A DNA stretch of 63,393 nt from a virus (lineage: Duplodnaviria; Caudoviricetes): positions 1-63,393 of the IMG/VR virus record IMGVR_UViG_3300028197_000950; one strand, 5' to 3'. The translations under genes were made by a program, and so were the position numbers. A model generated the notes under the pieces. That model ran no database searches. It was given only the letters and a program-made list of their open reading frames with translations, and was not told the origin of the DNA. This document shows, piece after piece, positions 2,284-63,393 of the stretch. The stretch's first letter is position 1. Every line of letters begins with the position of its first letter.

Positions 2284-2292
2284 TATAACTAT

Positions 2293-3578: not shown

Positions 3579-3579
3579 T

Positions 3580-3894: not shown

Positions 3895-3907
3895 TTAAAT
3901 TCAATTA

Positions 3908-6029: not shown

Positions 6030-6034
6030 TAAAT

Positions 6035-7577: not shown

Positions 7578-7860
7578 GACTATTAAATTCAGAGATCCAG
7601 TCGTTGAGAACGTCGTGGATAAGTTTGTATCAAGATCTGATGTTGGCTTTGCTAAGTATGGTCAGTCAATGCACAATGAAAGAACAACCAAACAAAAGGA
7701 TCTAGCAGGTTATCTTAATGATATACAAGAAGAGCTTATGGATGCTATACTATATATTCAAGCTGCACGTGAAGAACTAGCAGAACAAGAAGATCTAAAT
7801 ATATTAAGTGTTAACTCTCCTCTACCAGGTGAAGAACTAGAATATGGTTCGCCGGTATAG
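7567..7860 (+). CDS. All-alpha nucleotide diphosphohydrolase-like protein (start revised from 7504)
   Basis: GFAKYG...YLNDIQEELMDAILY motif; ATG at 7567 overlaps the end of the MazG gene. Confidence 0.55.
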   Translation: MKSKTIKFRDPVVENVVDKFVSRSDVGFAKYGQSMHNERTTKQKDLAGYLNDIQEELMDAILYIQAAREELAEQEDLNILSVNSPLPGEELEYGSPV

Positions 7861-8293: not shown

Positions 8294-8421
8294 CTAGAAG
8301 AAAATATGCTGAACGTCAATTACAAAAGTTTATAGACTGGAGTGTTGAGTCTAAAGGCTATTTAAAATATAAAGATTTAATGAAATATTCAGAACAATAT
8401 GGCACAACAAAAATCACATAG
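8248..8421 (+). CDS. Small hypothetical protein (57 aa), not in ORF track
   Basis: MRRDRKLNSFEQKDLARRKYAERQL...; fills the gap in the operon. Confidence 0.5.
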   Translation: MRRDRKLNSFEQKDLARRKYAERQLQKFIDWSVESKGYLKYKDLMKYSEQYGTTKIT

Positions 8422-8533
8422 CAGAACAGAAAGGGTGAAAATTAAAAGAAAAGGTATACACGCTAAGACAAAAACGTCTAGCTCTACATCTAGCCCATTA
8501 TATAAAAAGAAATACAACGGACAAGGACGATGA
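8399..8533 (+). CDS. Small basic protein (44 aa) ending YNGQGR, not in ORF track
   Basis: Lys/Arg-rich; stop ATGA-coupled to the ORF at 8530. Confidence 0.6.
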   Translation: MAQQKSHSRTERVKIKRKGIHAKTKTSSSTSSPLYKKKYNGQGR

Positions 8534-8757
8534 AAGAAAGTACATTATTAGAAATGCAAAATAAAATTGCGGCATTAACAAGAGTTGTGCAACAAATGAT
8601 AAATGAAATGAATATACTTAGTACTACTGCAATGGGTACTTTAGAAACTGTAAAATTAATGCCTGGTTATAAAGAGTCTTTAGATCAATTAAAATTACAA
8701 GCAGAAGAAATAGAAAAAGAAAGGAAAAATGGAATTATCGAACAAAATACTAAGTGA
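8530..8757 (+). CDS. Hypothetical coiled-coil protein
   Basis: ORF in operon upstream of the RNR. Confidence 0.6.
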   Translation: MKESTLLEMQNKIAALTRVVQQMINEMNILSTTAMGTLETVKLMPGYKESLDQLKLQAEEIEKERKNGIIEQNTK

Positions 8758-10652: not shown

Positions 10653-10686
10653 AAAAAGGGGAAGTCGTAATGACCTCCCCTTTTTT
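10653..10686. terminator. Bidirectional rho-independent terminator between the converging arms
   Basis: AAAAA-GGGGAAGTC-GTAAT-GACCTCCCC-TTTTTT. Confidence 0.85.
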
Positions 10687-16700: not shown

Positions 16701-19700
16701 TATCTGTAGTTATTTCTTGAATTTGCTTGTTATTATCTTCTATTTGATTTTTTATTCTAGCATTAGTGTTTGGCCCTAATTTTTTTGCTTCTACTTCTAG
16801 CTTTTCATTAGCCTCTAATAATTGAGCAACTTCCATTTGAGCTTTACCATTTATGTTTGGGTCTATTTTATTAAACCTACTAAATGCTTTATTCATTTCA
16901 AAAGCATCTTCATCAAACTGCTCTTGAGTATATATCTCGCCATTAACCTCTTGTCCTATTTGCTCTTTTATTTGTGTTAAAGCTACTGATAGATCTTCTG
17001 GAGATCTTAAAGTATTAGCAAGTTCTTCCATGTTTTTTTCAAACTGCTTTCTTTCAGCAAAAGAATTTTCAGCTTCGTAATCGCTTAATATTTGTTCACT
17101 ATTTATCATAGCTTGAAAACTACCACCTGCATTACCTGATAAAAAAGAAACACCAGCCATATGTTTCATTTCTTTTTTAAACTCACTTGAAGTGTAAGCA
17201 GGTAATTCAAAACTCAATTGATTTCCTGTTCCTTTGTTAAACATCTCAGTAATAAAGTAATCCGCGCCTGTTTGAATAGTTTCATCTAAAAGTTCATCTA
17301 TACCAGATCCAGTTACTTTACCAAACTTAGATAAAGCTTTAGCGCTTAAATCTCCTATTTTCTTGTTAACAGCTATTTGAATATCTTTTGCAGTAACATT
17401 ACCTGTCAAGTTCTTCATTACAGAATTAGTTACTCTACCTACTACTTTTTCAGTTATTTTAATATTACCTTTCATTATACCTGCAGTAACATAAGACAAA
17501 GCACCTTGCACAGTTGCTTTTGCTAAAGCATATCCTTGCCTAGAAGCTGGCGACCATATTTCATCAAATCTTTTCTTAGCTTCTGACCTGCTTAGTTCAG
17601 GGTGATCAGCTATAAATTCATTTTCTACTCTAACAGCATCAGCTTGTTCAGCGGCTAGAGTTCCAAAGAAATAACCGCCAGCTAAACCTGTTAATGGAGC
17701 ACCTATGACAGCACCGTACATTTGAGCAAAAGAATTTATAGTTCCACCAACAAGGCTTTGAGCAAATTCTTGACTGAACTTTTCATCATTACCACTTAGT
17801 TGTAGTTGATCTTTTATCGCTTTAATATTACTATCTATACTTGCATTTTCAAAAGCAAATCTCTGTTTGTAAGACTTGTACTGTCTATCATTTATACCAA
17901 AAGCTTTTTTAATGAAATCAGGAGATCCACTTGAATATATCTCATGTCCAAGATAGTTTATACCTCTAGCAAATAATTGAAAAGCTTGAACTCTACCTAC
18001 ACTTGTCTCCGCAACTTGACCCACTACAGTATTATATAACTCTCTTATATAACTTCCTTGTGCTTCATATTTTTCAGACATTTTTTCTAAGCGACCACTA
18101 AGCATTAAATTTGAAGCTGTATATTCTCCTTCTAAAGCTGTTAAAAAATCATTATCAGCAAGTAAACCATCAAACTCATCTTTTAACTTAGTAAAACCAC
18201 CAATTCCGGCATTGTACTCCTCTGTTAAAGATTCTATATTTGGTATTTTATCATCATAAAATTCTTTGTATTTAGAGGATATACTTTTTTCTTTTTCTAA
18301 GTTTTTATTATAAGTCTTTATAGAGTCTTTTTGATCTGACATGAAACCTTTTTCCCACTTTACATACTCTTTAGTTAATTGCTTTGCTAAATCTGGGTTA
18401 TTAGCTATCTCTTTCTTTAATTGATCTACCTTTTTACTTTGAACATTAGAACCATTGTCTATTTCTTCTTTAAGAATTTTGTTATCTTTTTCTATTAATC
18501 TTATTTCTTCATTTGATTTTATAAACTGTTTTCTTAATAAAGTTTTTTGTTTTGTAATATCTTCTGAAATCTTAGAAGTATCTAGTATTATTTTTGTTCT
18601 TTGTTGGATATTAGACTTTTGTTCGTTTATATTTCCTTTTATGAGATTAATTGTTTTCTTTTTTTCTTTTATTTCCTTGCTGTTATCAGCCTTAGCTCCA
18701 GGAGCAGTGCTGTTTGATTTTTTGTATTCACTTATGTTTTTATCTATAAAGTTTGTAATACCTTCAATGTCTTCTACTTTGTTTCCTCTTGCACCAAAAT
18801 CAGCCTTATAAGAAAGACCTTTTCTTTCCATTAATTTATTAAAGTCATCTGTTTCATAAATTACTTCTCCAAAAGAATTTCTTTTTGGCATCTGATCGGC
18901 AGATATACCATTAGCTTCTAAAGTTTTTCTATAATCTACACTACCGTCATCTTTAAATACAGGGTTTTTATAAACATAAACGTCACTACCATCTCTAATA
19001 GCGCCAATACCATTATTTATATACTTTTCATTAATATTATCTCTTACAGCATCAGATTCTAGATTTTCAAACTCTCTTATATTTTTTCCTAGTTTCTTTT
19101 TTATACCAAATATTCCTGTCTGGCCATAGTTTTTCTCTGTTTTAATTTCATAGCCATTATCAGTATTTTTAAAATAACCACCTTTACCAGTCCAGTCCGT
19201 AGGTTTTGGCTTTTCTTGTTTTTCTTCTATGGAACTTAACATATTGTTATTACGATATGCTTGAACAAGTTTTGATTGTTTATTATTTTTGTTTTCTTTA
19301 AGCTCTTCTACCCTTTCTGGAGTTGTCTCAGGGTTGTTTAATTCTTGATCAATTACATTTATCTCATTTATAATTTCTGAAGGATTAGCAGGTATAAGTG
19401 AGCTTTCCGCGGTAACAACTAATTCTGGTAAAGTTTCATCTTTAGGATCTCTTATAGTAACTTGATCTGTAGTTACAACATCATCTTTTTTACCAAACAA
19501 TTCTTCTTCTTGCTCAAAAGTTAGGTATATTGGAGTATCTCCTTGAATTTCCTTGGCTGTATTAAAGTTGAAAAAGCCATTTTTTTTATCTTGCTTGTAG
19601 TAAGCTATATAATAATTTCCTTTAGAAGTTTCAACTGTAGATTCTTTATCTTCACCTGGCCTGTTTATTCTTTTTTTAGTTTCTGGCTCAGTATAATTAT

Positions 19701-20226
19701 AGTTTATTTTCTTTAATGAAACTAAGTTACCTGATCTTCTATCTGTATCTTCTTCTAGCCTAGTTAAAGGCTCAGATTGATTTTTTAATTTATCCGCGTC
19801 TTCAGCTATGTTAGATAAATCTACGTTTTTTCTATTAAATGAGTTTTGTATTTTAGTTTTTTCTTCATCATTTAAACTAGTTAAATCATAAGTTTCTATA
19901 ACATCGTATTTTCCTTCTGGTATATTTTCAGAGTTTTTTGGTACTTTGATTTTTCCCTTAGACTTTTTTTCTTCTTTAATATCTTTTTTACCTAAGTTTT
20001 CAGGATCATTTTCATTTTTTTGAGAGTCCAAAGAAGTATCTTCCGAGCTGGATTCCGTACTGTCTTGACTTTCCGCCGCTACAGGTGCAGCTTTCTCCGC
20101 AACGACTTTTGGCTTTTCCACCTCTGCAGGTTTATTGTCAATATCCCACTGGTTAAGTAGTTCTAAAGCTTCTGCTTTTTTTACTCCTTTATCTTTTAAA
20201 GATTGTACGTATTCTTTTTTAGTCAT
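10729..20226 (-). CDS. Giant (3165 aa) polyvalent, probably virion-ejected protein with zincin, PD-(D/E)XK and HAD-like domains
   Basis: HESLH followed by AEE; GFAYE...SDF...VEVK; VFDFDDTL...VLTAR...K...YFADD; last gene of the tail/ejection module. Confidence 0.75.
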   Translation of the reverse strand: MTKKEYVQSLKDKGVKKAEALELLNQWDIDNKPAEVEKPKVVAEKAAPVAAESQDSTESSSEDTSLDSQKNENDPENLGKKDIKEEKKSKGKIKVPKNSENIPEGKYDVIETYDLTSLNDEEKTKIQNSFNRKNVDLSNIAEDADKLKNQSEPLTRLEEDTDRRSGNLVSLKKINYNYTEPETKKRINRPGEDKESTVETSKGNYYIAYYKQDKKNGFFNFNTAKEIQGDTPIYLTFEQEEELFGKKDDVVTTDQVTIRDPKDETLPELVVTAESSLIPANPSEIINEINVIDQELNNPETTPERVEELKENKNNKQSKLVQAYRNNNMLSSIEEKQEKPKPTDWTGKGGYFKNTDNGYEIKTEKNYGQTGIFGIKKKLGKNIREFENLESDAVRDNINEKYINNGIGAIRDGSDVYVYKNPVFKDDGSVDYRKTLEANGISADQMPKRNSFGEVIYETDDFNKLMERKGLSYKADFGARGNKVEDIEGITNFIDKNISEYKKSNSTAPGAKADNSKEIKEKKKTINLIKGNINEQKSNIQQRTKIILDTSKISEDITKQKTLLRKQFIKSNEEIRLIEKDNKILKEEIDNGSNVQSKKVDQLKKEIANNPDLAKQLTKEYVKWEKGFMSDQKDSIKTYNKNLEKEKSISSKYKEFYDDKIPNIESLTEEYNAGIGGFTKLKDEFDGLLADNDFLTALEGEYTASNLMLSGRLEKMSEKYEAQGSYIRELYNTVVGQVAETSVGRVQAFQLFARGINYLGHEIYSSGSPDFIKKAFGINDRQYKSYKQRFAFENASIDSNIKAIKDQLQLSGNDEKFSQEFAQSLVGGTINSFAQMYGAVIGAPLTGLAGGYFFGTLAAEQADAVRVENEFIADHPELSRSEAKKRFDEIWSPASRQGYALAKATVQGALSYVTAGIMKGNIKITEKVVGRVTNSVMKNLTGNVTAKDIQIAVNKKIGDLSAKALSKFGKVTGSGIDELLDETIQTGADYFITEMFNKGTGNQLSFELPAYTSSEFKKEMKHMAGVSFLSGNAGGSFQAMINSEQILSDYEAENSFAERKQFEKNMEELANTLRSPEDLSVALTQIKEQIGQEVNGEIYTQEQFDEDAFEMNKAFSRFNKIDPNINGKAQMEVAQLLEANEKLEVEAKKLGPNTNARIKNQIEDNNKQIQEITTDSNNEISKELTEQEQLDFTDKQLKIVSLQKIKNLAKDQDISKEDADNLLNESKVEVFDDENVDEIAKKYNLNKEDLLDPEGVYLKDKGIILMSKTATKGVLEHESLHNFLDIALSDPKNKNVVFGIAEALKKQMAEVDPETARKIERQLDKYRSDENYTDADVAEEILTYYTQLKKRGEFKKGTTVGGEIQAGVRRLFQGLGMEIEINENNVMEVLDDYIRNTGRGKLTRSQRKLAKGKVKFSDIIKKSGDLIASENDTKVIPINKQSETTTEDIKSRDTKMVAAKPISVDTKSMSNSFDQNITEDLKTNDDFKESEAALDAFDAIENNSNFNSYINQLITRDGNLQSLSPSVKEEVNRKIKENLQIRTLKNFKPELDGNRRSLFSFIYGKASENGMGGIAQKALLDVKKEYATRPDSNARSIDKPTSEGQAFDIEDKSAEQDIINRIDGGEASAAPKSQFRRNLIVGDQKGLNNEQVEDFKKVSENVSNKLPDANAKNFRTKLDQLAGTELKSWVKDNILKGQDYKTFIKDNYNNIRDLDIKYLIDLDKGLMKQGKPRMFTKPNRRLTSQADIRKYRDSGRAYVENESQGVMLYDILNPGAGATVDFFTKEKPSTVSNRKGKLAESLGRQMFKDALPEIRNKKGESDQTKAMSAKKTQKDPRLLFAKKLDGLDLDKNQEKTFVKRVGQIVDNNPGITLQEAINLEYNKIGTNKGFAYENVIIERLKALKIKGFNVSGQAGGNKKGISDFAATIFDNALNVEVKLAVAQYGDVGLRFRNGLIDFNNNVKKKNYSFKERIRKELFEKADKALKAYRKRAGELGADLNVYDKTGKLPADIYIQLGEGLDAEGVADLKPKYSAIKEKYPDGIKGEGLQKAITQIAEFDITPVREIYENKVPPTSYIQLQGSGLFFMGKNPLGLPLPELTGNVDLTLRVNKGKSSVNKDGVMMTTVNLRVLPSKLRNIPKSDYTLDSASSVSSLMKTEAVKMLEAKVPAKESNIKELSNEVVKFSKTETNEDIINYASTVDEALKLANSLDQPVKKIRVFDFDDTLATTKSDVLFTAPDGTEGKLNAEQFATQGAQLLEQGYEFDFSEFNKVTKGKPGPLLDIAKKIQDARGTQDVFVLTARNPAAQVAIKEFLDSQGLDIPLENITGLGDSTGAAKAKWMVNKAAEGYNDFYFADDAYQNVKAVRDVMSVIDVKSKVQQARIKESKKLSDEFNDLLEETTGVDAFKEYSAAKAKTIGASKGNFKFFIPYSAEDFLGLVYPTLSKGSKGDAQMAWYKTNLIDKYTKAQENLSTSRLNLMNDFKQLKKSLNIPANLRKKNSSGFTNEQAVRVHLFTSMGYEVPGLSKRDLKQLNDTVENDATLKEFSEQILQITKGDGYSKPDANWLVGTITTDLINLINTEKRSKYLSEWQESIDTIYSKENLNKLEAIYGTKYVDALTNMLTRMKTGKNRLTSGSKIENQILDYVNGSIGTIMFFNTRSAVLQTISSINFVNWSFNNPYQAGKAFANQKQYWSDFKELMNSDYLLDRRNGLKLNISESEIADAAATSKNKAKAAINYLLQKGFLPTQYADSFAIASGGATFYRNRIKDLVRQGKTETEAKEQALIEFRQVAEESQQSSDPSRISQQQSSNVGRLILAFANTPMQYARIQKRAIQDLVNGRGDAKSHVSRIVYYGFVQNVIFNALQQAVFALGFGDDDDEKEEAKNKKYLNVANGMLDSLLRGLGIGGAAVSVAKNFLMDIYERSGRDRPEYVDSVWEVTRFSPPIYSKLSKLKQAGWQFDSKKRRELIFEKGFSLDNPAYEAAAKVVSATTNVPLDRVMYKIKNIEGALDEDNEIWQRVAMMGGWPKWQLESPKTAADLTPEQKAEVKAKSKIDNYKKAKGSKDYDTIKKLTSDQQVKMLKSLGFGEYTIKNAKTEKAKIDLIIAKNSKKKNIVDKKAIEEYKYKKLNKAEQVRKLDSLGLSKDEIKALKLEADRVEKLVELMK

Positions 20227-50543: not shown

Positions 50544-50800
50544 AACACAATAACTATATCAAATTCTTTAATGACCTTATATTGTTCTTTTTCTATTTCG
50601 ATGTTGAAGCCAGACGACTTATCATAGTAAACTTCGTCGCCTGGTACTATACCTTCAACAAGGGTACCGACTGCTACAACCGTAGCCTTTCGGTACCTTA
50701 TATCTTCTCTTTGCTTTTCAGCTAAGATTAAACCACCCTTAGTGGTTACATCAGTTTCTTTAATTGGATTAACAACTACATACTTACCTATTGCTTTCAT
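50540..50800 (-). CDS. groES: Co-chaperonin GroES
   Basis: TKGGLIL mobile loop, ATVVAVG, PGDEV; coupled to groEL. Confidence 0.88.
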   Translation of the reverse strand: MKAIGKYVVVNPIKETDVTTKGGLILAEKQREDIRYRKATVVAVGTLVEGIVPGDEVYYDKSSGFNIEIEKEQYKVIKEFDIVIVL

Positions 50801-52347
50801 GCTCGTACATTATTTATTACACAATCAGTGGATAATATAGTAGTAGCTACTGAAGCCGCGTTAAGTAATGCACTTTTAGTTACTAGCAAAGGATCAATAA
50901 TTCCGGCTTTTACCATATTAACCGTTTTTCCTGTAACCACATCTAATCCTATACCTTCTTCTCTAACAGAAACATTATCACTGTCTATACCAGCATTTTT
51001 AAGTATCAATTTATAAGGCTCTTTAATAGCACAGTAAAGTACTTCTTCGCCTATTGACATTGGTTTTAATTGCTGTGCAGCGTTTAATAAAGCTATACCG
51101 CCTCCTGGCACTATACCTTCTTTTATCGCAGCTTTTGTAGCACAAATAGCATCTTCTACTCTATCTCTTTTTTCTTTTAACTCTATTTCAGAATTAGCCC
51201 CAACTTTAACTGTAGCAACTTTAGCTTTTAATTTAGCTAAACGTCTTTCTAATCTAATAACTACATTAGGGTTTTTAGTTTCTTTAACCTGTTTCTCTAA
51301 TAAAGTAATAACTTCTTTAACTTCGCTATTATCAGATAAATCAACTTTTAAAATAGTTTCTTCATTATCTGAAACAGATTTTAAGCAAGTTCCTAGATGT
51401 TCTGGTTCTATAATATCCATATCATCACCTAAGTCTTCGTTAATAAGTGTAGCACCAGTAACTGCGCATAAATCATTTAGAGTATCCTTCTTACTAATAC
51501 CATAAACCGGCGCATCTATAATGTTAACCTTTATGTTTCCTTTTACTTTATTCATTGAAAGTGCTGAAACTACTTGCGGGTCAACATCTGCTATTATGAG
51601 CAAACTTTTACCTTTCTTTATCACATATTCAAGAACTGACTGAATCTTCCGCACGTTGGGTATTACTGATTCTACTATGAGAACCAACGGATTTTCAAGT
51701 TCAGCCGTGCCCTTTTCCTTGTTGGTAATAAAATGGTTATTTTTCAAGGGCTGATCATATTGCACGCCTTCTACTAGCTCAACTATAGTCTCTGGCTGTT
51801 CGTTTGTTTCCATCATAACAACACCTGTTTCGTCTACTAATCTAAACGCTTCTCCTATGATCTTCCCAAGCTCTTTGTCATTGTTGGCTGATATTGTAGC
51901 CACTTGATCAATCTTTTTACCTTTTACTTTATTTGATTTTTTATTTAAATAAGCTATAACTTTTTTAACACCTGAGTCAATACCTTCTTTTAATTCTCTT
52001 GAGGTATCTAGCTCGCTATGTTTGTAAGCTTCATCTAAAATAGCTTTTGCTAATACTGTAGCAGTTGTAGTACCGTCACCTGCGTCTGATACTGTTCTTT
52101 GTGCTGCTTGTTTTATTAACGTAGCTCCAATATTTTCTAAAGAATCTTGTAATGTAACTGCATTAGCTACTGTTACTCCATCTTTTGTTATTTGTGGCAT
52201 ACCATTAGCATCTTCTAATATAACACATTTACCACTTGCTCCTAGAGTTGAACCTACTGCATTAGTAAGTTTTTCAACTCCAGTTAATATCTGACTTCTG
52301 GCACCATCACCAAAAGCCAGATTTTTAACTAACTTTAATTCTTGCAT
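50797..52347 (-). CDS. groEL: Chaperonin GroEL
   Basis: ITKDGVTVA, AGDGTTTATVLA, EGIVPGGG and GIIDP. Confidence 0.95.
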   Translation of the reverse strand: MQELKLVKNLAFGDGARSQILTGVEKLTNAVGSTLGASGKCVILEDANGMPQITKDGVTVANAVTLQDSLENIGATLIKQAAQRTVSDAGDGTTTATVLAKAILDEAYKHSELDTSRELKEGIDSGVKKVIAYLNKKSNKVKGKKIDQVATISANNDKELGKIIGEAFRLVDETGVVMMETNEQPETIVELVEGVQYDQPLKNNHFITNKEKGTAELENPLVLIVESVIPNVRKIQSVLEYVIKKGKSLLIIADVDPQVVSALSMNKVKGNIKVNIIDAPVYGISKKDTLNDLCAVTGATLINEDLGDDMDIIEPEHLGTCLKSVSDNEETILKVDLSDNSEVKEVITLLEKQVKETKNPNVVIRLERRLAKLKAKVATVKVGANSEIELKEKRDRVEDAICATKAAIKEGIVPGGGIALLNAAQQLKPMSIGEEVLYCAIKEPYKLILKNAGIDSDNVSVREEGIGLDVVTGKTVNMVKAGIIDPLLVTKSALLNAASVATTILSTDCVINNVRA

Positions 52348-56987: not shown

Positions 56988-57034
56988 GATTTTATTTTTT
57001 TTAATATTTTTAAGTAATTACCTTAATATAAGAG

Positions 57035-57059
57035 ATTACACAGTAAACTTAATATTTAC
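57035..57059 (-). promoter_or_regulatory. Class B promoter motif GTAAAT-N14-GTAAT heading the late arm
   Basis: 48 nt upstream of the ATG at 56987. Confidence 0.6.
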
Positions 57060-57080
57060 ATATATAGTGATTAATAAAAA

Positions 57081-57127
57081 GGTGACAAATGCCCCTTATT
57101 CTATAGCTCTAAGGGGTAAATGTCACC
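57081..57127. repeat. Inverted repeat in the divergence zone (candidate origin/operator)
   Basis: GGTGACA-AATGCCCCTTA...TAAGGGGTAAA-TGTCACC. Confidence 0.7.
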
Positions 57128-57319
57128 CTATTTAGATATATATAAGTAAAGTACTGCAATATCAAATTTTTATTTTGTATTTTTTAGCAAAGTCAGTTTT
57201 ATATTTCGGGGTTCCCATCGTTTTCACGATTATGTTTTGTATATATGCGAATAATCGATACGATATTGCGGCAGAGTTTTAGGCTTCAGCGTTTCACATT
57301 GTTATATATACTAACTAGT

Positions 57320-57350
57320 ACATACTATATACGACGACATGTGGATAATA
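57320..57350 (+). promoter_or_regulatory. Class A motif (variant ACATACTATATACGA-N9-GATAATA)
   Basis: First copy of the early arm. Confidence 0.6.
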
Positions 57351-57398
57351 ATAATGTAACTACGAAAGATACAAACTAAACTAATAAATAAATAACAT

Positions 57399-57494
57399 AT
57401 GACTAATATAATAAATAAACTTACATCACTCGAAATAGTATTACCAATAATCTTTATCACTTATGAATTAATGTTCTTAATATATATAATGTAA
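57399..57494 (+). CDS. 31-aa single-TM micropeptide, not in ORF track
   Basis: MTNIINKLTSLEIVLPIIFITYELMFLIYIM after an A-rich leader. Confidence 0.45.
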   Translation: MTNIINKLTSLEIVLPIIFITYELMFLIYIM

Positions 57495-57559
57495 GATCAT
57501 TAGAGATAATGTGATACACTTAACAACTAATAATAATAATTAAATAAATATACACTTAT

Positions 57560-57590
57560 ACAAACTAAATACGACACTAACAAGATAATA
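57560..57590 (+). promoter_or_regulatory. Class A motif
   Basis: Exact consensus. Confidence 0.75.
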
Positions 57591-57621
57591 ATAATAACTA
57601 AACTAAATAAATAATAACAAT

Positions 57622-57858
57622 ATGAAAACTAATAACTTAACAACAAAAAGATTTGTAATAAGAAAATCTTTACTCGGTACAAATACAGTAATAACATTTA
57701 CTAACAAAAAAGATATAACTTTTACTTATGATCATGATGAGATTTACTCAACATTTCAACAAAAGTTTGAAGAAATGCAATGTTTTCAACAGTACAAATC
57801 TTATACAAATAGTAATACTGTTCCAAAATTCTGTAGAGAATTAAGTACTCAGTCTTAA
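57622..57858 (+). CDS. Early hypothetical protein
   Basis: Follows a class A motif. Confidence 0.65.
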   Translation: MKTNNLTTKRFVIRKSLLGTNTVITFTNKKDITFTYDHDEIYSTFQQKFEEMQCFQQYKSYTNSNTVPKFCRELSTQS

Positions 57859-57926
57859 AACTAAAAGTCGAAGTTGATAGTAATACTTTAACGACTATAA
57901 ATAACACGAACATATTACTCGACACA

Positions 57927-57972
57927 TAACTGAAATGGTTGTAAGTGAGATTCGATTTCTCACTCAGTTACA
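57927..57972 (+). ncRNA. tRNA-like acceptor-stem/T-arm element
   Basis: TAACTGA/TCAGTTA stem; GTGAGA-TTCGATT-TCTCAC arm; AATGGT linker; no anticodon arm. Confidence 0.5.
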
Positions 57973-58000
57973 AACTAATTACGACAATCGTAAGATAATA
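57970..58000 (+). promoter_or_regulatory. Class A motif (one mismatch)
   Basis: ACAAACTAATTACGA-N9-GATAATA. Confidence 0.72.
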
Positions 58001-58009
58001 ATAATAACT

Positions 58010-58129
58010 ATGTATAATGAAATAAAAATACTACAAGAGTTTTCAAAGAAAGTCTTTGATATGACTCCAATAACCATCAATCAATTATTGATGATAAAAA
58101 AAGAATTTAATAACTATAAAAATAAATAA
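58010..58129 (+). CDS. Small early protein (39 aa; start revised from 57935)
   Basis: ATG 9 nt after a class A motif. Confidence 0.5.
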   Translation: MYNEIKILQEFSKKVFDMTPITINQLLMIKKEFNNYKNK

Positions 58130-58130
58130 T

Positions 58131-58334
58131 ATGTCTTATAATATAAACTCACCTTCAAACTGGTCATGGTCAAAAGCATTTGACGAAATGGACAAATATG
58201 TTCATCAAACAGAAATGACTCAACAATCTATAAATCACGTAATCGGTTATCCCGGTGAAGCTAATGGTGTCTTTATGTCACTAGATAAATCACAACAAGA
58301 TGATGTTTACGATATACTAAATCAAATACTATGA
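58131..58334 (+). CDS. Early hypothetical protein
   Basis: ORF in operon. Confidence 0.6.
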   Translation: MSYNINSPSNWSWSKAFDEMDKYVHQTEMTQQSINHVIGYPGEANGVFMSLDKSQQDDVYDILNQIL

Positions 58335-58402
58335 ATAAAGAACAGAAACTATTTATAGCAATATTAATTTGCTCAATACTAATAATAATAACAGATGTCG
58401 TT

Positions 58403-58433
58403 ACAAACTAAATACGACAAATAATAGATAATA
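58403..58433 (+). promoter_or_regulatory. Class A motif
   Basis: Exact consensus. Confidence 0.75.
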
Positions 58434-58438
58434 ATAAT

Positions 58439-58657
58439 ATGAATATAAAACAACATAAGCAAAAGCTTAACAAAGAATACAATCAAGCGATTGTCGATAA
58501 AGTACTAAACTCAATGTGGTCAAAGCTCGGTAACGAACTAGATAATGTAATGATCAGTGAAGGTCCTTACTCTGAAACTAATAATGAAATGTTTGACGAT
58601 CAAGATTGTTACGCAGGTATTATACTAAATACTATGAAACTACAATGTGATGAATAA
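58439..58657 (+). CDS. Early hypothetical protein
   Basis: Between a class A motif and the hammerhead. Confidence 0.6.
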   Translation: MNIKQHKQKLNKEYNQAIVDKVLNSMWSKLGNELDNVMISEGPYSETNNEMFDDQDCYAGIILNTMKLQCDE

Positions 58658-58707
58658 GTTTAACTGATGAGAGTTTAATACTCGAAACTACGTAAGTAGT
58701 CTTAAAC
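58658..58707 (+). ncRNA. Type I hammerhead ribozyme
   Basis: GTTTAA-CTGATGA-GAGT(TTAAT)ACTC-GAAA-CTAC(GTAA)GTAG-TC-TTAAAC: all core nucleotides, three stems, GUC cleavage triplet. Confidence 0.93.
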
Positions 58708-58725
58708 AATAATAACTAACTAAAT

Positions 58726-58962
58726 ATGAAAAAAATAATAATAAGTATTGCTGCACTCGGCGCAATGTCATTCACAAGTAATCAATTATATTACTCAACT
58801 CAACTAGTCTATGCTATGAATAACATAGAAGATATGAAAGAGTGGATTATACAAGATGTTGAAAACAATAAAATTGATAGTGTATATGCAGAGTTTTACT
58901 TTGAAACACTAGATGAAACTCACGGTTTTATTAATGACTTTTTCGAGCACGAATGCAAATAA
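58726..58962 (+). CDS. Small protein with an N-terminal signal peptide
   Basis: MKKIIISIAALGAMSFT followed by an acidic body. Confidence 0.65.
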   Translation: MKKIIISIAALGAMSFTSNQLYYSTQLVYAMNNIEDMKEWIIQDVENNKIDSVYAEFYFETLDETHGFINDFFEHECK

Positions 58963-58992
58963 CAAACTAAATACGAACACTAATAGATAATA
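58962..58992 (+). promoter_or_regulatory. Class A motif
   Basis: Exact consensus. Confidence 0.75.
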
Positions 58993-59014
58993 ATAATATA
59001 ATAAATAAATAAAT

Positions 59015-59188
59015 ATGAATAAAAAAACAATAACATCAATCACAGGATTACTAATGATAGTAGTTCTAGCAATGGCAACATCATGCTCAACTACACAATA
59101 TGCTAATAAAACATACGCTAAAAAGAAGTTTAACGGTAAGATTACTGCTCGTGCTCATCACTACAATGCTTGTCCAGCTTACCAATAA
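59015..59188 (+). CDS. Small putative lipoprotein (57 aa), not in ORF track
   Basis: MNKK, hydrophobic stretch, lipobox-like ATSC. Confidence 0.65.
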   Translation: MNKKTITSITGLLMIVVLAMATSCSTTQYANKTYAKKKFNGKITARAHHYNACPAYQ

Positions 59189-59197
59189 AATATAATT

Positions 59198-59368
59198 ATG
59201 ACTGAACAGCAAAAAATAGAAGCAATCGCTCAAGATATACAAGATGGTATCTACGGTTGGACACAGAAATGTGGAACAGAGTGGCAGAAGTGGACATACT
59301 CATTAATGCAAGCTAAAAAAATATATGAAGGTGATTTAATAATAAGTTTAAGTATAGAAAATGAATAG
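59198..59368 (+). CDS. Small early protein (56 aa), not in ORF track
   Basis: MTEQQKIEAIAQDIQDGIYGW...; fills the gap. Confidence 0.55.
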   Translation: MTEQQKIEAIAQDIQDGIYGWTQKCGTEWQKWTYSLMQAKKIYEGDLIISLSIENE

Positions 59369-59552
59369 AGATAGAGAATGGGATTTTATGGAAGAACATA
59401 GAGAGCTAATGAAAACAGAAGATGAAAGATCTTTACTAGCAACTTTTGGAATAGTAGTTAGAGAACTAGCTATTAAGTATCCTAATAACCAAGAATTAGG
59501 TGCAGAAGTAAGAGAATTAATACAAGATTACAAACTAAATACGAATAGCTAA
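59361..59552 (+). CDS. Early hypothetical protein with YPNNQELGAEVR motif
   Basis: ORF in operon. Confidence 0.6.
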   Translation: MNRDREWDFMEEHRELMKTEDERSLLATFGIVVRELAIKYPNNQELGAEVRELIQDYKLNTNS

Positions 59553-59560
59553 AGATAATA
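59530..59560 (+). promoter_or_regulatory. Class A motif
   Basis: Exact consensus. Confidence 0.75.
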
Positions 59561-59565
59561 ACAAT

Positions 59566-59709
59566 ATGAAAACAATTAAATTTTACCCAAGCGACAGGTC
59601 TCTAATGAGATTAGATGGCAAATTACTAAAAGGTTACACTATAGATAGTATACCAGACAATATAAACTCATGGTTTAACTATAAAGGTCTAACATTTGTA
59701 ACAAGTTAA
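59566..59709 (+). CDS. Small early protein (47 aa), not in ORF track
   Basis: ATG 5 nt after a class A motif. Confidence 0.55.
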   Translation: MKTIKFYPSDRSLMRLDGKLLKGYTIDSIPDNINSWFNYKGLTFVTS

Positions 59710-59760
59710 CGGACATGAGTGTGATGTTGTAACTCGATCCAAAAACATACGAGCGTTAAC

Positions 59761-59801
59761 TCGCGATAGCTCATACTTAACCAGTATGGGCTTTTCGTGG
59801 T
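59761..59801 (+). promoter_or_regulatory. Conserved start-abutting RNA hairpin, copy 1
   Basis: TCGCGA-T-AGCTCATACT(TAACC)AGTATGGGCT-TT-TCGTGG-T-ATG. Confidence 0.65.
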
Positions 59802-60239
59802 ATGAAATGTAACCACAATATTCCACAAGCAAGATTAGATCTTGGCTATAAAGTATGTATCGATTGTAGTACAGTAGAAAAACTCGGCTGTATCGACACT
59901 ATAAATCATAAAACTGGCAATACTATTCAAGTAATGTCACATGAAGATGCAGAAAAAGCCAATAAGTTAACAAAACGAGCAGGTTTTGGTATACTAAGAT
60001 CTATGGCTAATGGTTCAAGTCAACGTAAAGCTAATATGATCACTGGATGCTCAACTACTTATGTAGGTAACGACGTTATGTTCGAGCAAATAGGTAAAAC
60101 TTACATGGATTATTTAGAAGTTGATGAAGAAATTGCCCAGCGCTATCTCGATCGAGCGCTAAACAATGCAGATATATCTGAAAACCAATATAATAAGATA
60201 AAAATGCTTTGTAACAGACTAAATACGATCACTATTTGA
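59802..60239 (+). CDS. Protein with an N-terminal DksA/TraR-like zinc-finger segment
   Basis: C...IPQARLDLGYKVCIDCS. Confidence 0.6.
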   Translation: MKCNHNIPQARLDLGYKVCIDCSTVEKLGCIDTINHKTGNTIQVMSHEDAEKANKLTKRAGFGILRSMANGSSQRKANMITGCSTTYVGNDVMFEQIGKTYMDYLEVDEEIAQRYLDRALNNADISENQYNKIKMLCNRLNTITI

Positions 60240-60244
60240 TAATA
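60214..60244 (+). promoter_or_regulatory. Class A motif (one mismatch)
   Basis: ACAGACTAAATACGA-N9-GATAATA. Confidence 0.7.
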
Positions 60245-60258
60245 TATTAAACAAATAT

Positions 60259-60405
60259 ATGAATAAAATAACAAAACAGCTCGAAAACTTGTACTCTTGG
60301 ACAAAATTCTATCAAGATCGAGCAGATAAAGAAGCAATTAGAAAATGTCAAACTGAAATCGCGCAGTTGAAACAAGCGTTTAATCAATTGAAATCTAAAA
60401 AATGA
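60259..60405 (+). CDS. Small early protein (48 aa), not in ORF track
   Basis: Follows a class A motif; ATGA-coupled to 60402. Confidence 0.55.
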   Translation: MNKITKQLENLYSWTKFYQDRADKEAIRKCQTEIAQLKQAFNQLKSKK

Positions 60406-60686
60406 AAGATACTAATGCAATAGATAAAGCTATTAGACAAAAATGTGAAAAAGAAATATGGTTTATAGTTGATAGTTTCTTAAATGAAATAGAAACTAAA
60501 TTAAGAGGTGAATATAATAACTCTAGTTTTTACTATTTAAATGCTCCTAATTCAAAAGTTAAATTCACTGTAATGGGTATGGAACAACTTAAAACTGTAT
60601 TAAACAATATGTTAATAGAAGGTCACATAGAATCTATGTTGAGTATAAAATCACGAGAATTAATCAAAAAACTTGAATTATTATGA
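60402..60686 (+). CDS. Early hypothetical protein
   Basis: ORF in operon. Confidence 0.6.
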   Translation: MKDTNAIDKAIRQKCEKEIWFIVDSFLNEIETKLRGEYNNSSFYYLNAPNSKVKFTVMGMEQLKTVLNNMLIEGHIESMLSIKSRELIKKLELL

Positions 60687-60988
60687 AAAATAGAACACTA
60701 AACGAAATTAGACAATCAAAAGAGTATCAACAAGCCGTTAAATCAGGAAATAATCTAGATTTAAATGTTGATGTAGCTATAGATGAAATAGTAGATAATC
60801 TTAATACTCACATGTTTGATATAATATTTCAAGCAGTAAATGATGAAATGCATAAGTATACTGTGTTTCAAGAACAAACTTATCTAACTGATGAAGGTAT
60901 GGATATGTTTGAAGAGCAATGGTTCGAGTTTTATCATGAGCATCACGGTGAAATTCTAGGTAAAATAATGAAAACTCTTACAAACTAA
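60683..60988 (+). CDS. Early acidic hypothetical protein
   Basis: Stop lies inside a class A motif. Confidence 0.6.
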   Translation: MKNRTLNEIRQSKEYQQAVKSGNNLDLNVDVAIDEIVDNLNTHMFDIIFQAVNDEMHKYTVFQEQTYLTDEGMDMFEEQWFEFYHEHHGEILGKIMKTLTN

Positions 60989-61010
60989 ATACGAACACTT
61001 AAAGATAATA
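60980..61010 (+). promoter_or_regulatory. Class A motif
   Basis: Exact consensus. Confidence 0.75.
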
Positions 61011-61015
61011 CATAT

Positions 61016-61156
61016 ATGAATGATATAATAAAACAAACTCTTACAGAAAAGATAGACTCTCTAACTAAGTCTGTGTGGGGTGTTAGCAATGATGAGCTAA
61101 CAGAAATAGTCTATAAAATAGACAAGCTAAAACAACAATTAAAACTAATAAAATGA
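61016..61156 (+). CDS. Small early protein (46 aa), not in ORF track
   Basis: ATG 5 nt after a class A motif; coupled to 61153. Confidence 0.55.
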   Translation: MNDIIKQTLTEKIDSLTKSVWGVSNDELTEIVYKIDKLKQQLKLIK

Positions 61157-61500
61157 CAGAAGAAAAACTAGCTTTAGAAACATTAAAAGCACTAGGTGTT
61201 AAAGATACATCAAGTCCATCTCAAACAAAAAGAGGTACAACTTGTTTTACTTTACCGACAGGTGATTGTGTGTCTGAGCACAAAACAGGTTATATTAGAA
61301 AAAATCTACTAAATAAAAACGGTGGAATATATACTTGTTATCAACTAAATCCACAATACAAGACAATTGAAAAGTCTATAAACTGGAACGGTGAAGAGCG
61401 TACTTTTGATAGAAACAACAGAATGTTGATATGGAACAGAGCTGAAAGACTAAAAAGATTAGTTCTTTACACAATAAAAAAAATAAACGAAACTAAATAA
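61153..61500 (+). CDS. Early hypothetical protein
   Basis: ORF in operon. Confidence 0.6.
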   Translation: MTEEKLALETLKALGVKDTSSPSQTKRGTTCFTLPTGDCVSEHKTGYIRKNLLNKNGGIYTCYQLNPQYKTIEKSINWNGEERTFDRNNRMLIWNRAERLKRLVLYTIKKINETK

Positions 61501-61501
61501 T

Positions 61502-61942
61502 ATGACAATAACTGAAGAAAAAATGATAAAAATAGCTAAGCAAGCACTTGGTTTAGAAATAACTGATAGCTTTGATACAAGCTGTGACTTATACTGCTAC
61601 AATGAATCTACTGTAGATGGCTATGACGTATGGGTATTAACTCATAGCTTGAATGATATAAATGTATGTGAAAACGTATATTACTATGAAGGTGACTTAG
61701 CATCTGCTGTTATGGAAGAAATTCAATACAACGGCGGTAGCGAAACTCTATTACATATGGATAGCTACTTGTGGGACGACTTATATATGGACGATCAAAT
61801 GCTTGAATATTTCGGTGAAACTATCGATGATATTATTGAAAACAATGATGAAGAAGGCTATGGTTTAACTAAAGCTGAAATACAAGAATTAAAAGATGAA
61901 CATGGCTTAGAAGCCGAAGAAATTGAAGAAACTGTTAGTTAG
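61502..61942 (+). CDS. Highly acidic early protein
   Basis: Strong Asp/Glu excess. Confidence 0.62.
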   Translation: MTITEEKMIKIAKQALGLEITDSFDTSCDLYCYNESTVDGYDVWVLTHSLNDINVCENVYYYEGDLASAVMEEIQYNGGSETLLHMDSYLWDDLYMDDQMLEYFGETIDDIIENNDEEGYGLTKAEIQELKDEHGLEAEEIEETVS

Positions 61943-61960
61943 TTAATAGTAGTTTAGTTT

Positions 61961-62024
61961 CCACGTTAGCTCGTACTTTCCCTTCGGCGTAAGCCCACAG
62001 GTGACGGTACGGGCTTTTCGTGGT
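61961..62024 (+). promoter_or_regulatory. Conserved start-abutting RNA hairpin, copy 2
   Basis: CCACG-TT-AGCTCGTACT...GGC(GTAA)GCC...GGTACGGGCT-TTT-CGTGG-T-ATG. Confidence 0.65.
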
Positions 62025-62240
62025 ATGAATAATATAGGAATAATGCAAGCGTTTATGTTACTAGGTGACTTAGACACTAAACAAGAGGACAAGCTAAGCA
62101 ATAAAGCTATAGCTTATAAAGAAAGAATAGTTTTCTCTACAATGAGAGCTAGTATACCTGGTTGGCAACCGCCAAGTAACTGGAATAGTTTAACTAATAA
62201 AGAAAAACTAAAAAGACTTGATAAACTACAATCAGTATAA
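62025..62240 (+). CDS. Early hypothetical protein (start revised from GTG 62001)
   Basis: ATG in the same hairpin context as 59802. Confidence 0.6.
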   Translation: MNNIGIMQAFMLLGDLDTKQEDKLSNKAIAYKERIVFSTMRASIPGWQPPSNWNSLTNKEKLKRLDKLQSV

Positions 62241-62242
62241 TT

Positions 62243-62273
62243 ACAAACTAAATACGATAACTAACAGATAATA
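62243..62273 (+). promoter_or_regulatory. Class A motif
   Basis: Exact consensus. Confidence 0.75.
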
Positions 62274-62278
62274 TTATT

Positions 62279-62587
62279 ATGATGAACGAAGACGAAATAG
62301 AAAGACTAGCTGACTTGTTGTTCGATAGAATAATGGAAAAGCAAGAAGAAGCAGACAGAGAGTATGCTGAACAAATAGTTAAATTAGCTAAAGATGGTTA
62401 TGTAGTAAATGACATAACTGACAAACTAGAACTCAATGAAGAAGAAAAACTAGTAGGTGAATTAGCTAAAATGCAGACAATTATGATGATTCTCGAAGAC
62501 AGAGAAGAATATGAAAAAGCTGCAGTAATACAAAAGAAAATTAAAAATATAAACAAGAAATTAAATAATGGATCAGGAAGATATTAA
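62279..62587 (+). CDS. Protein with a C-terminal UVR-like motif
   Basis: EDREEYEKAAVIQKKI. Confidence 0.55.
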   Translation: MMNEDEIERLADLLFDRIMEKQEEADREYAEQIVKLAKDGYVVNDITDKLELNEEEKLVGELAKMQTIMMILEDREEYEKAAVIQKKIKNINKKLNNGSGRY

Positions 62588-63393
62588 AGCAATGCTAGCG
62601 CATAAGTACAATGAAGATAAAGCAGATTATCCTGCGTTTATACAACCAAAACTAGATGGCGTACGCTGTTTATTTACTGCAAAAGGCGCTGTCTCTCGTG
62701 CTAACAATCAATTTATGAATGTACAGCATATAGAACAAGCTTTAAAGCCTTTCTTTGCAAAGAATCCTACAGCTATTCTTGACGGCGAATTATACAATCA
62801 CGGCCTAAAAGATGACTTTGAAAAGATTATATCTCTTGTAAAGAAGAAAAAACCAACAGATGATGACAGGCTTGAAGCAGCTGAACTAGTAGAATATCAC
62901 ATTTATGATGTGGCTAGTATGTCAATAGCTAATTATACTACAAGATTAAATTATATAAATTCAATATCAAACTTTCAATGGAATCATATACTACGTAGAG
63001 TTGACACTAAAGTTGCATTAGACTTTGACGATGCTCTTAAAATGCACAATAAAAACCTTAAACTAGGTTATGAAGGCAGTATATACAGATCATTTGAAGG
63101 CAAATACAAAGGTACAAGATCATGGGATCTTATGAAGTTTAAAGACTTTCACGATGCAGAAGCTCATATCGTAGGTTACGAAGAAGGTAAAGGCAAGCGC
63201 GAAGGTACACTAGGTAAATTCTTTATGCAAGATGATGACGGAAATAAGTTCGGTTGTCCTCCAGGTAAAGGATACAATTACAAAGACTTAGCTAATATGC
63301 TAGAAAATATACACGACTACATCGGTCAGTATGCTACATTTACATACTTCGAGCGAACTAAAGCAGGTAGTTACAGACATCCACATTATAAAG
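62568..63393 (+). CDS. ATP-dependent DNA ligase (runs off the end, finishes at 163); missed by ORF track
   Basis: QPKLDGVR (motif I), ILDGEL (III), YHIYDV (IIIa), YEGSIYR (IV), LMKFK (V). Confidence 0.92.
   Translation, partial: MDQEDIKAMLAHKYNEDKADYPAFIQPKLDGVRCLFTAKGAVSRANNQFMNVQHIEQALKPFFAKNPTAILDGELYNHGLKDDFEKIISLVKKKKPTDDDRLEAAELVEYHIYDVASMSIANYTTRLNYINSISNFQWNHILRRVDTKVALDFDDALKMHNKNLKLGYEGSIYRSFEGKYKGTRSWDLMKFKDFHDAEAHIVGYEEGKGKREGTLGKFFMQDDDGNKFGCPPGKGYNYKDLANMLENIHDYIGQYATFTYFERTKAGSYRHPHYK
63251..63393 (+). repeat. Terminal overlap, copy 2
   Basis: Matches 1-143 with two substitutions. Confidence 0.95.

Follow-up and report, generated by a model that had tools for sequence, protein, structure and literature searches.

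The phage sequence IMGVR_UViG_3300028197_000950 (63,393 bp, in the following called the window) carries a block of small genes on the + strand, and between 57.86 and 62.02 kb the borders of these genes hold a pseudoknot followed by a miniature tRNA-like element, a type-I hammerhead ribozyme and two homologous hairpins. These elements are real RNA-level structures on the + strand, with compensatory changes found for every stem set, and in related phages they take each other's places, or that of a putative promoter, at corresponding gene borders. What the aligned sequences show directly is the existence and conservation of the structures, the way they are exchanged as modules and their position relative to the ATG. 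Judged from the same sequences the elements most likely cut or shape the early messages, a reading to which we assign a probability of about one half. In an original prediction the region had been described as a suite of RNA-processing devices (a pseudoknot plus tRNA-like fold, a hammerhead, a multi-stem element and two homologous long hairpins) which together with repeated promoters would tailor the messages of small host-takeover genes, with the cutting of T7 early mRNA as one precedent. From this interpretation the structures, the repeated motif and the exchange at gene borders stand, while the T7 frame and the multi-stem element as a separate device do not, and the host-takeover role of the genes is a guess.

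The gaps between the small genes

Between positions 57,622 and 62,587 the open reading frames (ORFs) of the + strand leave gaps of more than 25 nt at 57859-58009, 58413-58438, 58658-58725, 58963-59014, 59710-59801, 60989-61015, 61943-62024 and 62241-62278. Four of these eight gaps are filled by a repeated motif, class A, alone, and the remaining four each hold a structured element, the first of them also ending in a class A copy. The expectation that sizeable gaps not filled by class A hold structures is thereby borne out in four gaps of four between 57.86 and 62.02 kb, and the structures are conserved in relatives.

The relatives are IMG/VR loci with L numbers. L001-L014 were fetched via a 145-aa ORF (59802-60239) and show 56-86% identity to its protein, whereas the other loci were fetched by IMG/VR pattern scans with pieces of the elements, and loci of one contig were de-duplicated by context only. 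Since all loci beyond L001-L014 were ascertained through the elements themselves, counts of what occupies a given slot are biased among them.

The class A copies in the window are:

57560-57589, + strand: class A motif, ACAAACTAAATACGA-N8-AGATAAT, putative promoter
57970-57999, 58403-58432, 58962-58991, 59530-59559, 60214-60243, 60980-61009, 62243-62272 and 5999-6028, + strand: further class A copies, putative promoters
57320-57349, + strand: degenerate class A copy, putative promoter

Allowing at most one mismatch, ACAAACTAAATACGA occurs nine times, always on the + strand, with eight copies in 57.5-62.3 kb and one at 5999. AGATAAT stands 8 nt behind each of them, and all copies lie upstream of ORFs. 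With up to three mismatches class A gives 17 matches against 5.1 expected, a number not reached in any of 100 shuffles. Class A thus behaves as the repeated promoter that it had been taken for, and we infer from these features that it is one. The spacing from GATAAT to the ATG is exactly 6 nt for 5 of the 10 copies in the genome and for 34 of 77 copies in 13 relatives, which would place the start site on the A of the ATG if GATAAT is a -10 element, and messages from class A would then probably be leaderless. No Shine-Dalgarno (SD)-like tetramer was found within 20 nt upstream of any of 20 early genes, which is consistent with a Bacteroidia host: according to two reports, Bacteroidia ribosomes do without SD use and initiation is tuned by mRNA structure (PMC6847099, PMC9976891).

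Among the 20 early gene starts, nine lie behind class A, eight overlap the preceding stop codon or follow it within at most 9 nt, and three lie behind a structure, namely the hammerhead and each of the two hairpins. In the fourth structured gap the pseudoknot and the tRNA mimic are preceded by a stop codon and followed by a class A copy. This copy (57970-57999) contains an internal palindrome with a 3-nt centre, TACGA-CAA-TCGTA, and palindromes with co-varying arms are present in relatives (CTACGA-TAG-TCGTAG, CGACA-AAG-TGTCG and AACGA-TAG-TCGTT; L002 4066, L003 813, L005 4109 and L008 4367). The palindrome could be an operator or a hairpin overlapping that promoter.

A type-I hammerhead ribozyme

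58658-58707, + strand: type-I hammerhead; stem I 58658-63/58702-07, core CUGAUGA 58664-70, stem II 58671-74/58680-83, GAAA 58684-87
58688-91/58696-99, + strand: stem III of the hammerhead, with a GUAA loop; predicted cut after C58701

A hammerhead core consists of CUGANGA, GAAA, a nucleotide other than G at the cleavage site and the closing pairs G10.1-C11.1 and A15.1-U16.1. The core at 58658-58707 is complete (CTGATGA 58664-58670, the pairs G58671-C58683 and A58687-T58700, and C58701 at the cleavage site), and the minimum-energy fold of the segment reproduces the three stems. A hammerhead descriptor matched the genome once and had no match in 300 dinucleotide shuffles. Among the protein-ascertained loci the hammerhead is kept in three of 14 (L009, L012 and L014), and it is also found in L230, L360 and L338; two descriptor matches (L005 7999 and L008 10584) were long and poorly matched and were disregarded. 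The core is intact in the seven family copies, where N7 alone varies (T or C), and stem II differs on both strands between the window (GAGT/ACTC) and L012 (GATC/GATC). Five copies close stem III with a GUAA, GCAA or GCGA loop, L230 with ACAA.

The hammerhead belongs to a wider class, characterized by a stem I of the form NNUUAA/UUAANN, a 4-bp stem II and a U-rich 5-nt loop. In 159 distinct sequences of this class stems II and III are 95-99% paired and use all four Watson-Crick pair types, and the pattern of stem I plus core occurs in at least 120 IMG/VR contigs with up to five copies per contig. Against the Rfam thresholds the window copy reaches 20 bits with RAGATH-1-hammerhead (gathering score 56.3, E = 7.3), and GC-richer members of the class reach 24.7-30.2 bits with Hammerhead_1 (gathering score 34); the low score we ascribe to stems that are short and AT-rich. 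By its sequence 58658-58707 is a genuine type-I hammerhead, with predicted self-cleavage. The predicted cut after C58701 would leave a 24-nt A/U-rich leader before ATG 58726, and in relatives devoid of the hammerhead the corresponding genes are coupled to the preceding ORF. In an unrelated viral contig, L018, a twister-P3 ribozyme (174-241; 42.5 bits, gathering score 39.9) precedes a hammerhead of this class (610-661) by approximately 370 nt.

A pseudoknot and a mini tRNA-like element

57866-57919, + strand: H-type pseudoknot; P1 57866-57870/57892-57896, loop segment 57879-57885 paired with 57913-57919
57927-57971, + strand: mini tRNA-like element; 7-bp acceptor-like stem 57927-57933/57964-57970, 6-bp T stem 57945-57950/57958-57963

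The gap at 57859-57969 consists of two separable modules, for both of which the fold noted earlier is supported by covariation. In 31 distinct copies of the pseudoknot P1 is paired in 100% of the cases and four of its five pairs change on both sides, while the second helix is 94% paired and has one of seven pairs compensated (AU to CG or the reverse, in 11 sequences); slid controls gave 22-40% pairing. The pseudoknot is present in all 13 relatives covering the region. The mini tRNA-like element, or mini-tRNA, has a 12-nt linker AAATGGTTGTAA in which AATGGTT is invariant, a T loop (57951-57957) that reads TTCGATT and a discriminator-like C at 57971, its 3' end overlapping the next class A copy. 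Of the 13 pairs, 12 change on both sides across 19 copies, and 93.5% of all cells are paired compared to 37-47% in slid controls.

The mini-tRNA has neither a D arm nor an anticodon arm, ARAGORN found no tRNA gene there, and a 131-nt search gave no Rfam tRNA or tmRNA match at E up to 10, from which we conclude that it is a mimic and not a tRNA. More generally, ARAGORN called no tRNA at any mimic in the genome or in 14 loci, Rfam gave no match at the gathering score in the genome or in 13 related loci, and Rfam searches by E-value (5 kb; two stretches of about 120 nt) returned only the weak RAGATH-1 hammerhead match along with chance matches (a snoRNA, a miRNA and L17DE at 15 bits). A covariance model of the mini-tRNA (R1) scored 79.4 bits for 57927-57971 and found nothing else credible in the genome. 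The model gave 17 matches in 13 of 100 hammerhead-bearing viral loci, with up to four per locus, and one match in one of 100 control viral loci that were fetched by chance 14-mer matches. The mini-tRNA mimic is a widespread family absent from Rfam. On hammerhead contigs several copies may lie within 2 kb of each other, as the four in L083 (2447-4283) or the two in L099 (36-2061).

Behind the pseudoknot, the 31 copies have the mini-tRNA in 13 cases, a hammerhead in one (L338), a small CCACG...CGTGGTA hairpin in one (L285) and nothing in 16. The L338 hammerhead has the same stems I and II as the one at 58658-58707. That hammerhead and tRNA mimics are interchangeable argues more strongly than anything else for the mimics being cutting signals. 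It also speaks against an explanation in which the hammerhead alone cuts, the hairpins described below are leaky terminators or 3' stabilizers, and the pseudoknot and mini-tRNA are unrelated non-coding RNAs or leaders whose clustering is coincidental. This explanation can point to the position of the pseudoknot, which stands behind an ORF in the genome studied, but directly behind class A in L009 and L011-L013, like a 5' leader.

Two homologous hairpins abutting start codons

59762-59801, + strand: HP1, bipartite hairpin; P1 CGCG 59762-65/CGTG 59796-99, P2 AGCTCATAC 59768-76/GTATGGGCT 59784-92, loop 59777-83
61961-62024, + strand: HP2, paralogue of HP1; P1 CCACG 61961-65/CGTGG 62019-23, P2 AGCTCGTAC 61968-76/GTACGGGCT 62007-15
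59708-59757, + strand: optional multi-stem insert in the 5' side of HP1; outer stem AACG/CGTT, inner hairpins 59713-59727 and 59733-59753

The two hairpins (HPs) have in common the sequence AGCTCRTAC ... GTAYGGGCT TTTCGTGGT ATGAA. The tail of HP1 ends 1-2 nt before ATG 59802, and in HP2, which carries a structured 30-nt insert in its loop (61977-62006), a single U precedes ATG 62025. They are the only thermodynamically unusual elements, with z values of -3.2 (HP1) and -4.4 (HP2) relative to shuffles, and the homology noted originally extends to a set of 36 distinct copies, from which L161 and L196 had been set aside as unrelated chance pattern matches. In this set pair 6 of the 9-bp P2 is free of mismatches, 20 copies having GC and 16 having AU. 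The invariant tail has a Watson-Crick partner of at least 5 bp upstream in 81% of the copies compared to 27% of shuffled flanks, or of at least 6 bp in 50% compared to 8%. The partner is usually (CC)ACGAA; in HP1 the insert has displaced it, and a new CGCG partner adjoins P2.

Could the HPs act as DNA, either as hairpin promoters for an N4-type virion RNA polymerase or as replication or packaging signals? An ORF of 3165 aa among the structural genes would offer a candidate polymerase, and HP is found where relatives have class A, abutting the ATG in the same way. Against this, a U.G wobble that would be an A.C mismatch on the other strand is retained in 35 of the 36 copies, indicating that the fold is meant for + strand RNA, and the + strand folds are stabler than those of the - strand (-30.5 vs -23.6 and -34.2 vs -28.0 kcal/mol). 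Furthermore, the terminal loops vary from 7 to 53 nt, with inserts of up to 76 nt in the 5' internal loop, and the 3165-aa ORF (10729-20226, - strand) matched no sequence in PHROG, Pfam or PDB and lacks a DFDxD-type motif. An action of the HPs as DNA is accordingly very improbable, and on the giant ORF, the variable loops and the wobble we rejected both an N4-like hairpin promoter and a crAss-like virion polymerase reading the HPs. A role of the 3165-aa ORF as an ejected polymerase that reads class A is conceivable.

The multi-stem element, counted originally as a device of its own, is real, but it is an insert within HP1. Its outer stem covaries in six copies as AACG/CGTT, AACATA/TATGTT or AACACA/TGTGTT. 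It is missing from HP1 of L002, L004 and L009, and in a metatranscriptome variant 59708-59765 is replaced by 25 other letters. A GGA/TCC pseudoknot inside the insert clashes with stem 2 and could be followed in six copies only, and it is not claimed. In L370 (- strand, from 5640 in reverse-complement numbering) the multi-stem insert occupies the place of the anticodon arm in a full tRNA-like scaffold, with a 7-bp acceptor, a linker AAATGGTAAGT and the T-arm GCAGG-TTCGATT-CCTGC, at which ARAGORN calls no tRNA.

The HPs also bear on the explanation raised above, in which they would be attenuators or 3' stabilizers. The GC-rich 9-bp stem is followed by UUUU and travels with the upstream gene in the rearranged L009 and L001, as a terminator would, and class A stands directly behind HP in L210 and L250, as it might after a terminator. 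The stem with its UUUU and the link to the upstream gene weigh against a role in processing. However, HP is not listed by a terminator scan requiring at least 5 T in 8, which the convergent terminator at 10653-10685 passes; its U run has only four residues, and these are drawn into P1 by pairing above chance. A plain terminator as the sole role of HP was rejected on these grounds. An attenuator would also not be expected to abut the ATG, which follows HP at once in 28 of 34 copies (class A follows in two and other sequence in four), nor to do so for starts belonging to at least seven gene families, nor to share its border with a tRNA-like element of the same ATG geometry or with a promoter. 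A role of HP as leaky terminator or 3' stabilizer is consistent with part of the data, but the explanation as a whole, with coincidental clustering around a single cutting element, appears doubtful to us. HP and the pseudoknot were further considered as known ribozymes, but Rfam lends this no support, and catalysis is unlikely given that HP in its simplest copies is a plain hairpin with a small internal loop.

Exchange of parts at gene borders

Upstream of the 145-aa ORF, HP is found in the genome studied and in eight of the 14 loci, class A with the 6-nt spacing in five, and direct coupling in one. Behind genes of the w59566 family the unbiased set (the genome and the 12 loci with the gene) has HP in 10 cases, a tRNA-like element in two and coupling in one, and in a biased sample of 31 distinct contexts HP follows directly in 12, a larger tRNA-like element in 10, class A in six, coupling in one and something else in two. 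The same ORF family (MK.IK.TMKEIYDAM) starts behind HP in L001 and L230 and behind the tRNA-like element in L011 and L013. The larger tRNA-like element combines a 7-bp acceptor-like stem (AGCGAGG/TCTCGCT) with a central arm that varies and with the T-arm GAGAGG-TTCGAAT-CCTCTC; complementarity in this description was judged by eye, with the arms fixed by the search pattern, and ARAGORN was negative. Its discriminator-like C and one T are followed by the ATG in six of 10 copies, by class A in two and by an A-rich leader in two, and the larger element and HP thus share the same positional grammar before the ATG.

Relatives therefore have different elements or a promoter at the same borders, a swapping of element types at orthologous positions that had been proposed as a check on the processing interpretation, and the comparison supports the view that equivalent positions are taken by promoters and by RNA modules of several kinds. 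For HP, which is interchangeable with a tRNA mimic and a promoter and abuts the start codon, a role in forming or exposing the 5' end of the next message is the best guess.

The variability of the region also invites other explanations. The elements could be early decoys or counter-defence RNAs, such as tRNA look-alikes soaking up nucleases or RNAs binding defence proteins: the accessory region around them is variable and made up of small ORFan genes, their presence among relatives is patchy, and a tRNA-binding protein could recognize the T-loop and the GG-containing linker which the mini-tRNA retains. Yet the mini-tRNA offers no anticodon arm to an anticodon nuclease, a self-cleaving hammerhead takes its place in L338, and a free decoy would not be expected to keep so exact a distance to an ATG or a promoter as HP and the larger tRNA-like element do, so we consider this improbable. 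We think as little of the notion that the elements are selfish or neutral mobile modules of RNA or DNA, or recombination boundaries of a mosaic region, without a role in expression. Their presence does resemble insertion and deletion, inserts occur in the internal and terminal loops of HP, and the same conserved element borders many genes as a recombination hot spot would. But all copies are intergenic and on the sense strand, helices are kept by compensatory changes, the hammerhead core is intact in seven of seven family copies, and the spacing to the ATG is fixed.

The genome and its host

The window is an entire phage assembly and circularly permuted, and its large ORFs form three blocks. 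The + strand block 1-10,591 encodes primase/helicase, thymidylate synthase, MazG, ribonucleotide reductase, Erf, an exonuclease and a sigma-like protein; the - strand block 10,729-56,987 encodes portal, terminase, virion proteins, a GroEL-like protein and the family-less 3165-aa ORF; and the + strand block from 57,000 to the end consists of small ORFs leading into a ligase-like gene. The circular permutation makes the region at 57.86-62.02 kb the head of a single 17-kb rightward block, and it is from this position that the small-gene block is presumed to be early. No Pfam family was found for any of the 10 early ORFs scanned, and the description of these genes as host-takeover genes is a guess.

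A capsid-region protein query matched 85 phage records, all at less than 60% identity, with the hosts Flavobacterium (68), Cellulophaga (15) and Maribacter (1), and one further record assigned to Caudoviricetes. These relatives point to a Flavobacteriia-type host, and by its sequence the phage is a 63-kb podovirus of such a host and not a relative of T7, which removes the T7 frame in which the elements had been placed. Among the 19 large ORFs scanned against PHROGs, a subset of the genome's ORFs, there was no RNA polymerase gene. Blastn of the early region, of the pseudoknot with the mini-tRNA and of HP1, as well as tblastn of the 145-aa ORF, gave no match to cultured relatives, and no cultured relative carrying the elements could thus be named.

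Near-identical pieces of 57000-62600 are present in 24 marine metatranscriptome or metagenome runs from 12 studies, with at most 0.36 of the sampled words. Aligned contigs from four of the runs show many strain variants, including one that lacks the multi-stem insert, one that lacks the ORF 60402-60686 and one that lacks 58335-58400. The latter deletion lies inside the stretch of a 26-codon ORF (58331-58411; MNKEQKLFIAILICSILIIIITDVVTN, translated by eye), which overlaps the stop codon of the preceding gene, enters a class A copy and resembles a small membrane peptide; a near-identical stretch occurs in L014, where it was found with an off-frame query.

Some further features of the genome were noted. 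A sigma-factor-like protein in the region 1507-2262 and 900-1520 matches PHROG 351, with a weak Sigma70_r2 match under the Pfam cut-off, and is adjoined by a helix-turn-helix (HTH) protein; the pair may switch the host polymerase to later promoters. The phage encodes its own GroEL-like chaperonin (50797-52347, - strand; PHROG 5725, E = 3e-129). In the divergent region between the leftward structural and the rightward small-gene blocks there is an imperfect long hairpin at 57076-57132 with 23-nt arms that are 78% complementary, and comparable TGTGACA...TGTCACA hairpins are found in relatives behind the w57622-family gene.

A model for the formation of the early messages

In our preferred reading, in which the elements cut or shape early messages, the + strand small-gene block would be transcribed from about ten class A repeats, most of them positioned so that a leaderless message would open with the start codon, and its genes would start behind class A, by coupling to a preceding stop codon, or behind an RNA module. 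The hammerhead would cut itself after C58701, giving the following gene its A/U-rich leader. The mini-tRNA would be a stand-in substrate, for RNase P at its 5' side and for RNase Z or a similar enzyme at its 3' side, and its processing would separate a first message ending in the pseudoknot from the next promoter; possibly the pseudoknot protects the end created by a cut at the mimic. MALAT1 acquires its 3' end upstream of the tRNA-like mascRNA, an arrangement which that of pseudoknot and mimic resembles. The two HPs would be a new processing signal recognized by a protein. After a cut at the foot of P1 the HP would stay on the upstream message as a 3' cap, and the adjacent AUG would be freed. 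This AUG might otherwise be masked, as a stable GC-rich helix one base before it should block initiation in a host that needs an open start region, with ribosomes that are SD-blind and sensitive to structure at the start codon. Every cleavage event and the enzymes involved are inferred from the structures and their positions.

Several observations weigh against this reading. No element reaches an Rfam threshold, and the pseudoknot, the multi-stem insert and HP match no Rfam family, including the RAGATH families, at E up to 10. The stretch with the pseudoknot and mini-tRNA (z = -0.6) and the hammerhead (z = -0.5) are no stabler than shuffles, and as the thermodynamic test fails for these elements we have used covariation as the evidence for them. 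The tallies of 31 pseudoknot copies and of 31 contexts behind the w59566 family are biased by loci fetched through element patterns, kinship among loci inflates the counts, and four of the 13 loci positive for the mini-tRNA had been used to train the model. The reading assigns the pseudoknot no firm function. HP departs from a tRNA in its details, with its 9-bp P2, no T-loop and 1-3 U between the helices, and its P1 and P2 together are short for a classical RNase III site. Finally, a processed RNA end was seen at none of the elements, the contigs of the four metatranscriptome runs being mostly 150-650 nt long, in many cases broken at the repeated class A motif, and unable to show ends.

More tentatively, one may imagine that in Bacteroidota phages RNA cutting stands in for a promoter, with hammerhead, tRNA mimics and HP as interchangeable punctuation. 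HP and the larger tRNA-like element would then be cut by a host tRNA-end enzyme (e.g. RNase Z) to give leaderless or nearly leaderless mRNAs with a 5' phosphate, and the pseudoknot with its mimic would be a cassette for 3'-end formation. We regard this extended scheme as possible, though with considerably less confidence than the general reading above. If true, it would be a bacterial-virus counterpart of mitochondrial tRNA punctuation, with HP as a new class of processing signal. If HP and the mimics release AUG-first messages, they would show a viral solution for internal starts in hosts without SD pairing and would provide compact and portable RNA-processing parts for Bacteroidota genetics. 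A single border that is occupied in different phages by a promoter, ribozyme, tRNA mimic or new hairpin, or left empty, constitutes a natural experiment, in which functional equivalence is directly testable.

Comparison with known systems

The early mRNA of T7 has RNase III processing hairpins between the early genes, each site being a long irregular helix of about two turns with an internal loop between cistrons. HP resembles these sites in being a long irregular hairpin with an internal loop that occurs in homologous copies between early genes, and a cut would, as with the T7 hairpins, give an upstream 3' hairpin and a short downstream 5' leader. It differs in the helix of 14-16 bp, the near-invariant P2 and tail, the end 1 nt before the AUG and the fact that the phage is not T7-like, and RNase III cleavage of the HPs is one of several possible readings. 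The regions also recall the idea behind the RAGATH families, that some gene neighbourhoods are rich in twister and hammerhead ribozymes, since different RNA devices gather in the same phage-like regions (L018 has both ribozymes), but the non-hammerhead elements found here match no Rfam family at E up to 10.

Hammerheads that flank prophage or phage genes have been reported before, with the proposal that long phage transcripts are cut into gene-length mRNAs, and in a halovirus a hammerhead lies 13 nt upstream of the start codon of an early gene, where the 5' end of a transcript maps close to the cleavage site (Perreault et al. 2011, PMC3088659). Since 2011 it has stood as an open proposal that ribozymes divide phage operons into messages the size of single genes. 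The hammerhead described here is likewise a consensus hammerhead, intergenic and on the sense strand of a phage operon, but it is a single type-I copy (stem I open) of a large uniform class, and in this lineage it shares slots with non-ribozyme elements, which is not described in the excerpts of that paper. A type-I hammerhead upstream of an ORF is also found among the self-cleaving ribozymes that enable cap-independent translation initiation in eukaryotic RNA viruses, where self-cleavage yields a translatable 5' end (Lopez-Galiano et al. 2026, PMC13725137); here the setting is a DNA phage with SD-blind host ribosomes, and an effect on translation is a prediction.

The closest described analogue of the mini-tRNA is the t-element of plant mitochondria (Forner et al. 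2007, PMC1920247). There t-elements, and even plain acceptor-like stem-loops, mark mRNA 5' or 3' ends and are recognized by RNase P and RNase Z. The t-element and the mini-tRNA are both non-canonical tRNA-like folds with a conserved T-arm, and the T-arm motif quoted for t-elements in that paper, GGTTCRANYCC, occurs exactly in the mini-tRNA of L001, L216, L332 and L054 and at nine of 11 positions in the 57927-57971 copy. Unlike t-elements the mini-tRNA belongs to a bacterial phage, is 45 nt long with no D or anticodon arm, and alternates with a ribozyme and promoters, and its cleavage is suggested by its shape and by the exchange with a hammerhead in L338. In the open-access literature searched, no paper was found on mini-tRNA mimics alternating with hammerheads in phage operons, nor on the HP or pseudoknot motifs. 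Hammerheads between phage genes and tRNA-like processing signals in organelles are thus known already, whereas the HP element, its AUG-abutting geometry, which a tRNA mimic and a leaderless-type promoter have as well, and the setting in a host without SD use are new, and the pseudoknot, HP and the mini-tRNA add three motifs that are absent from Rfam.

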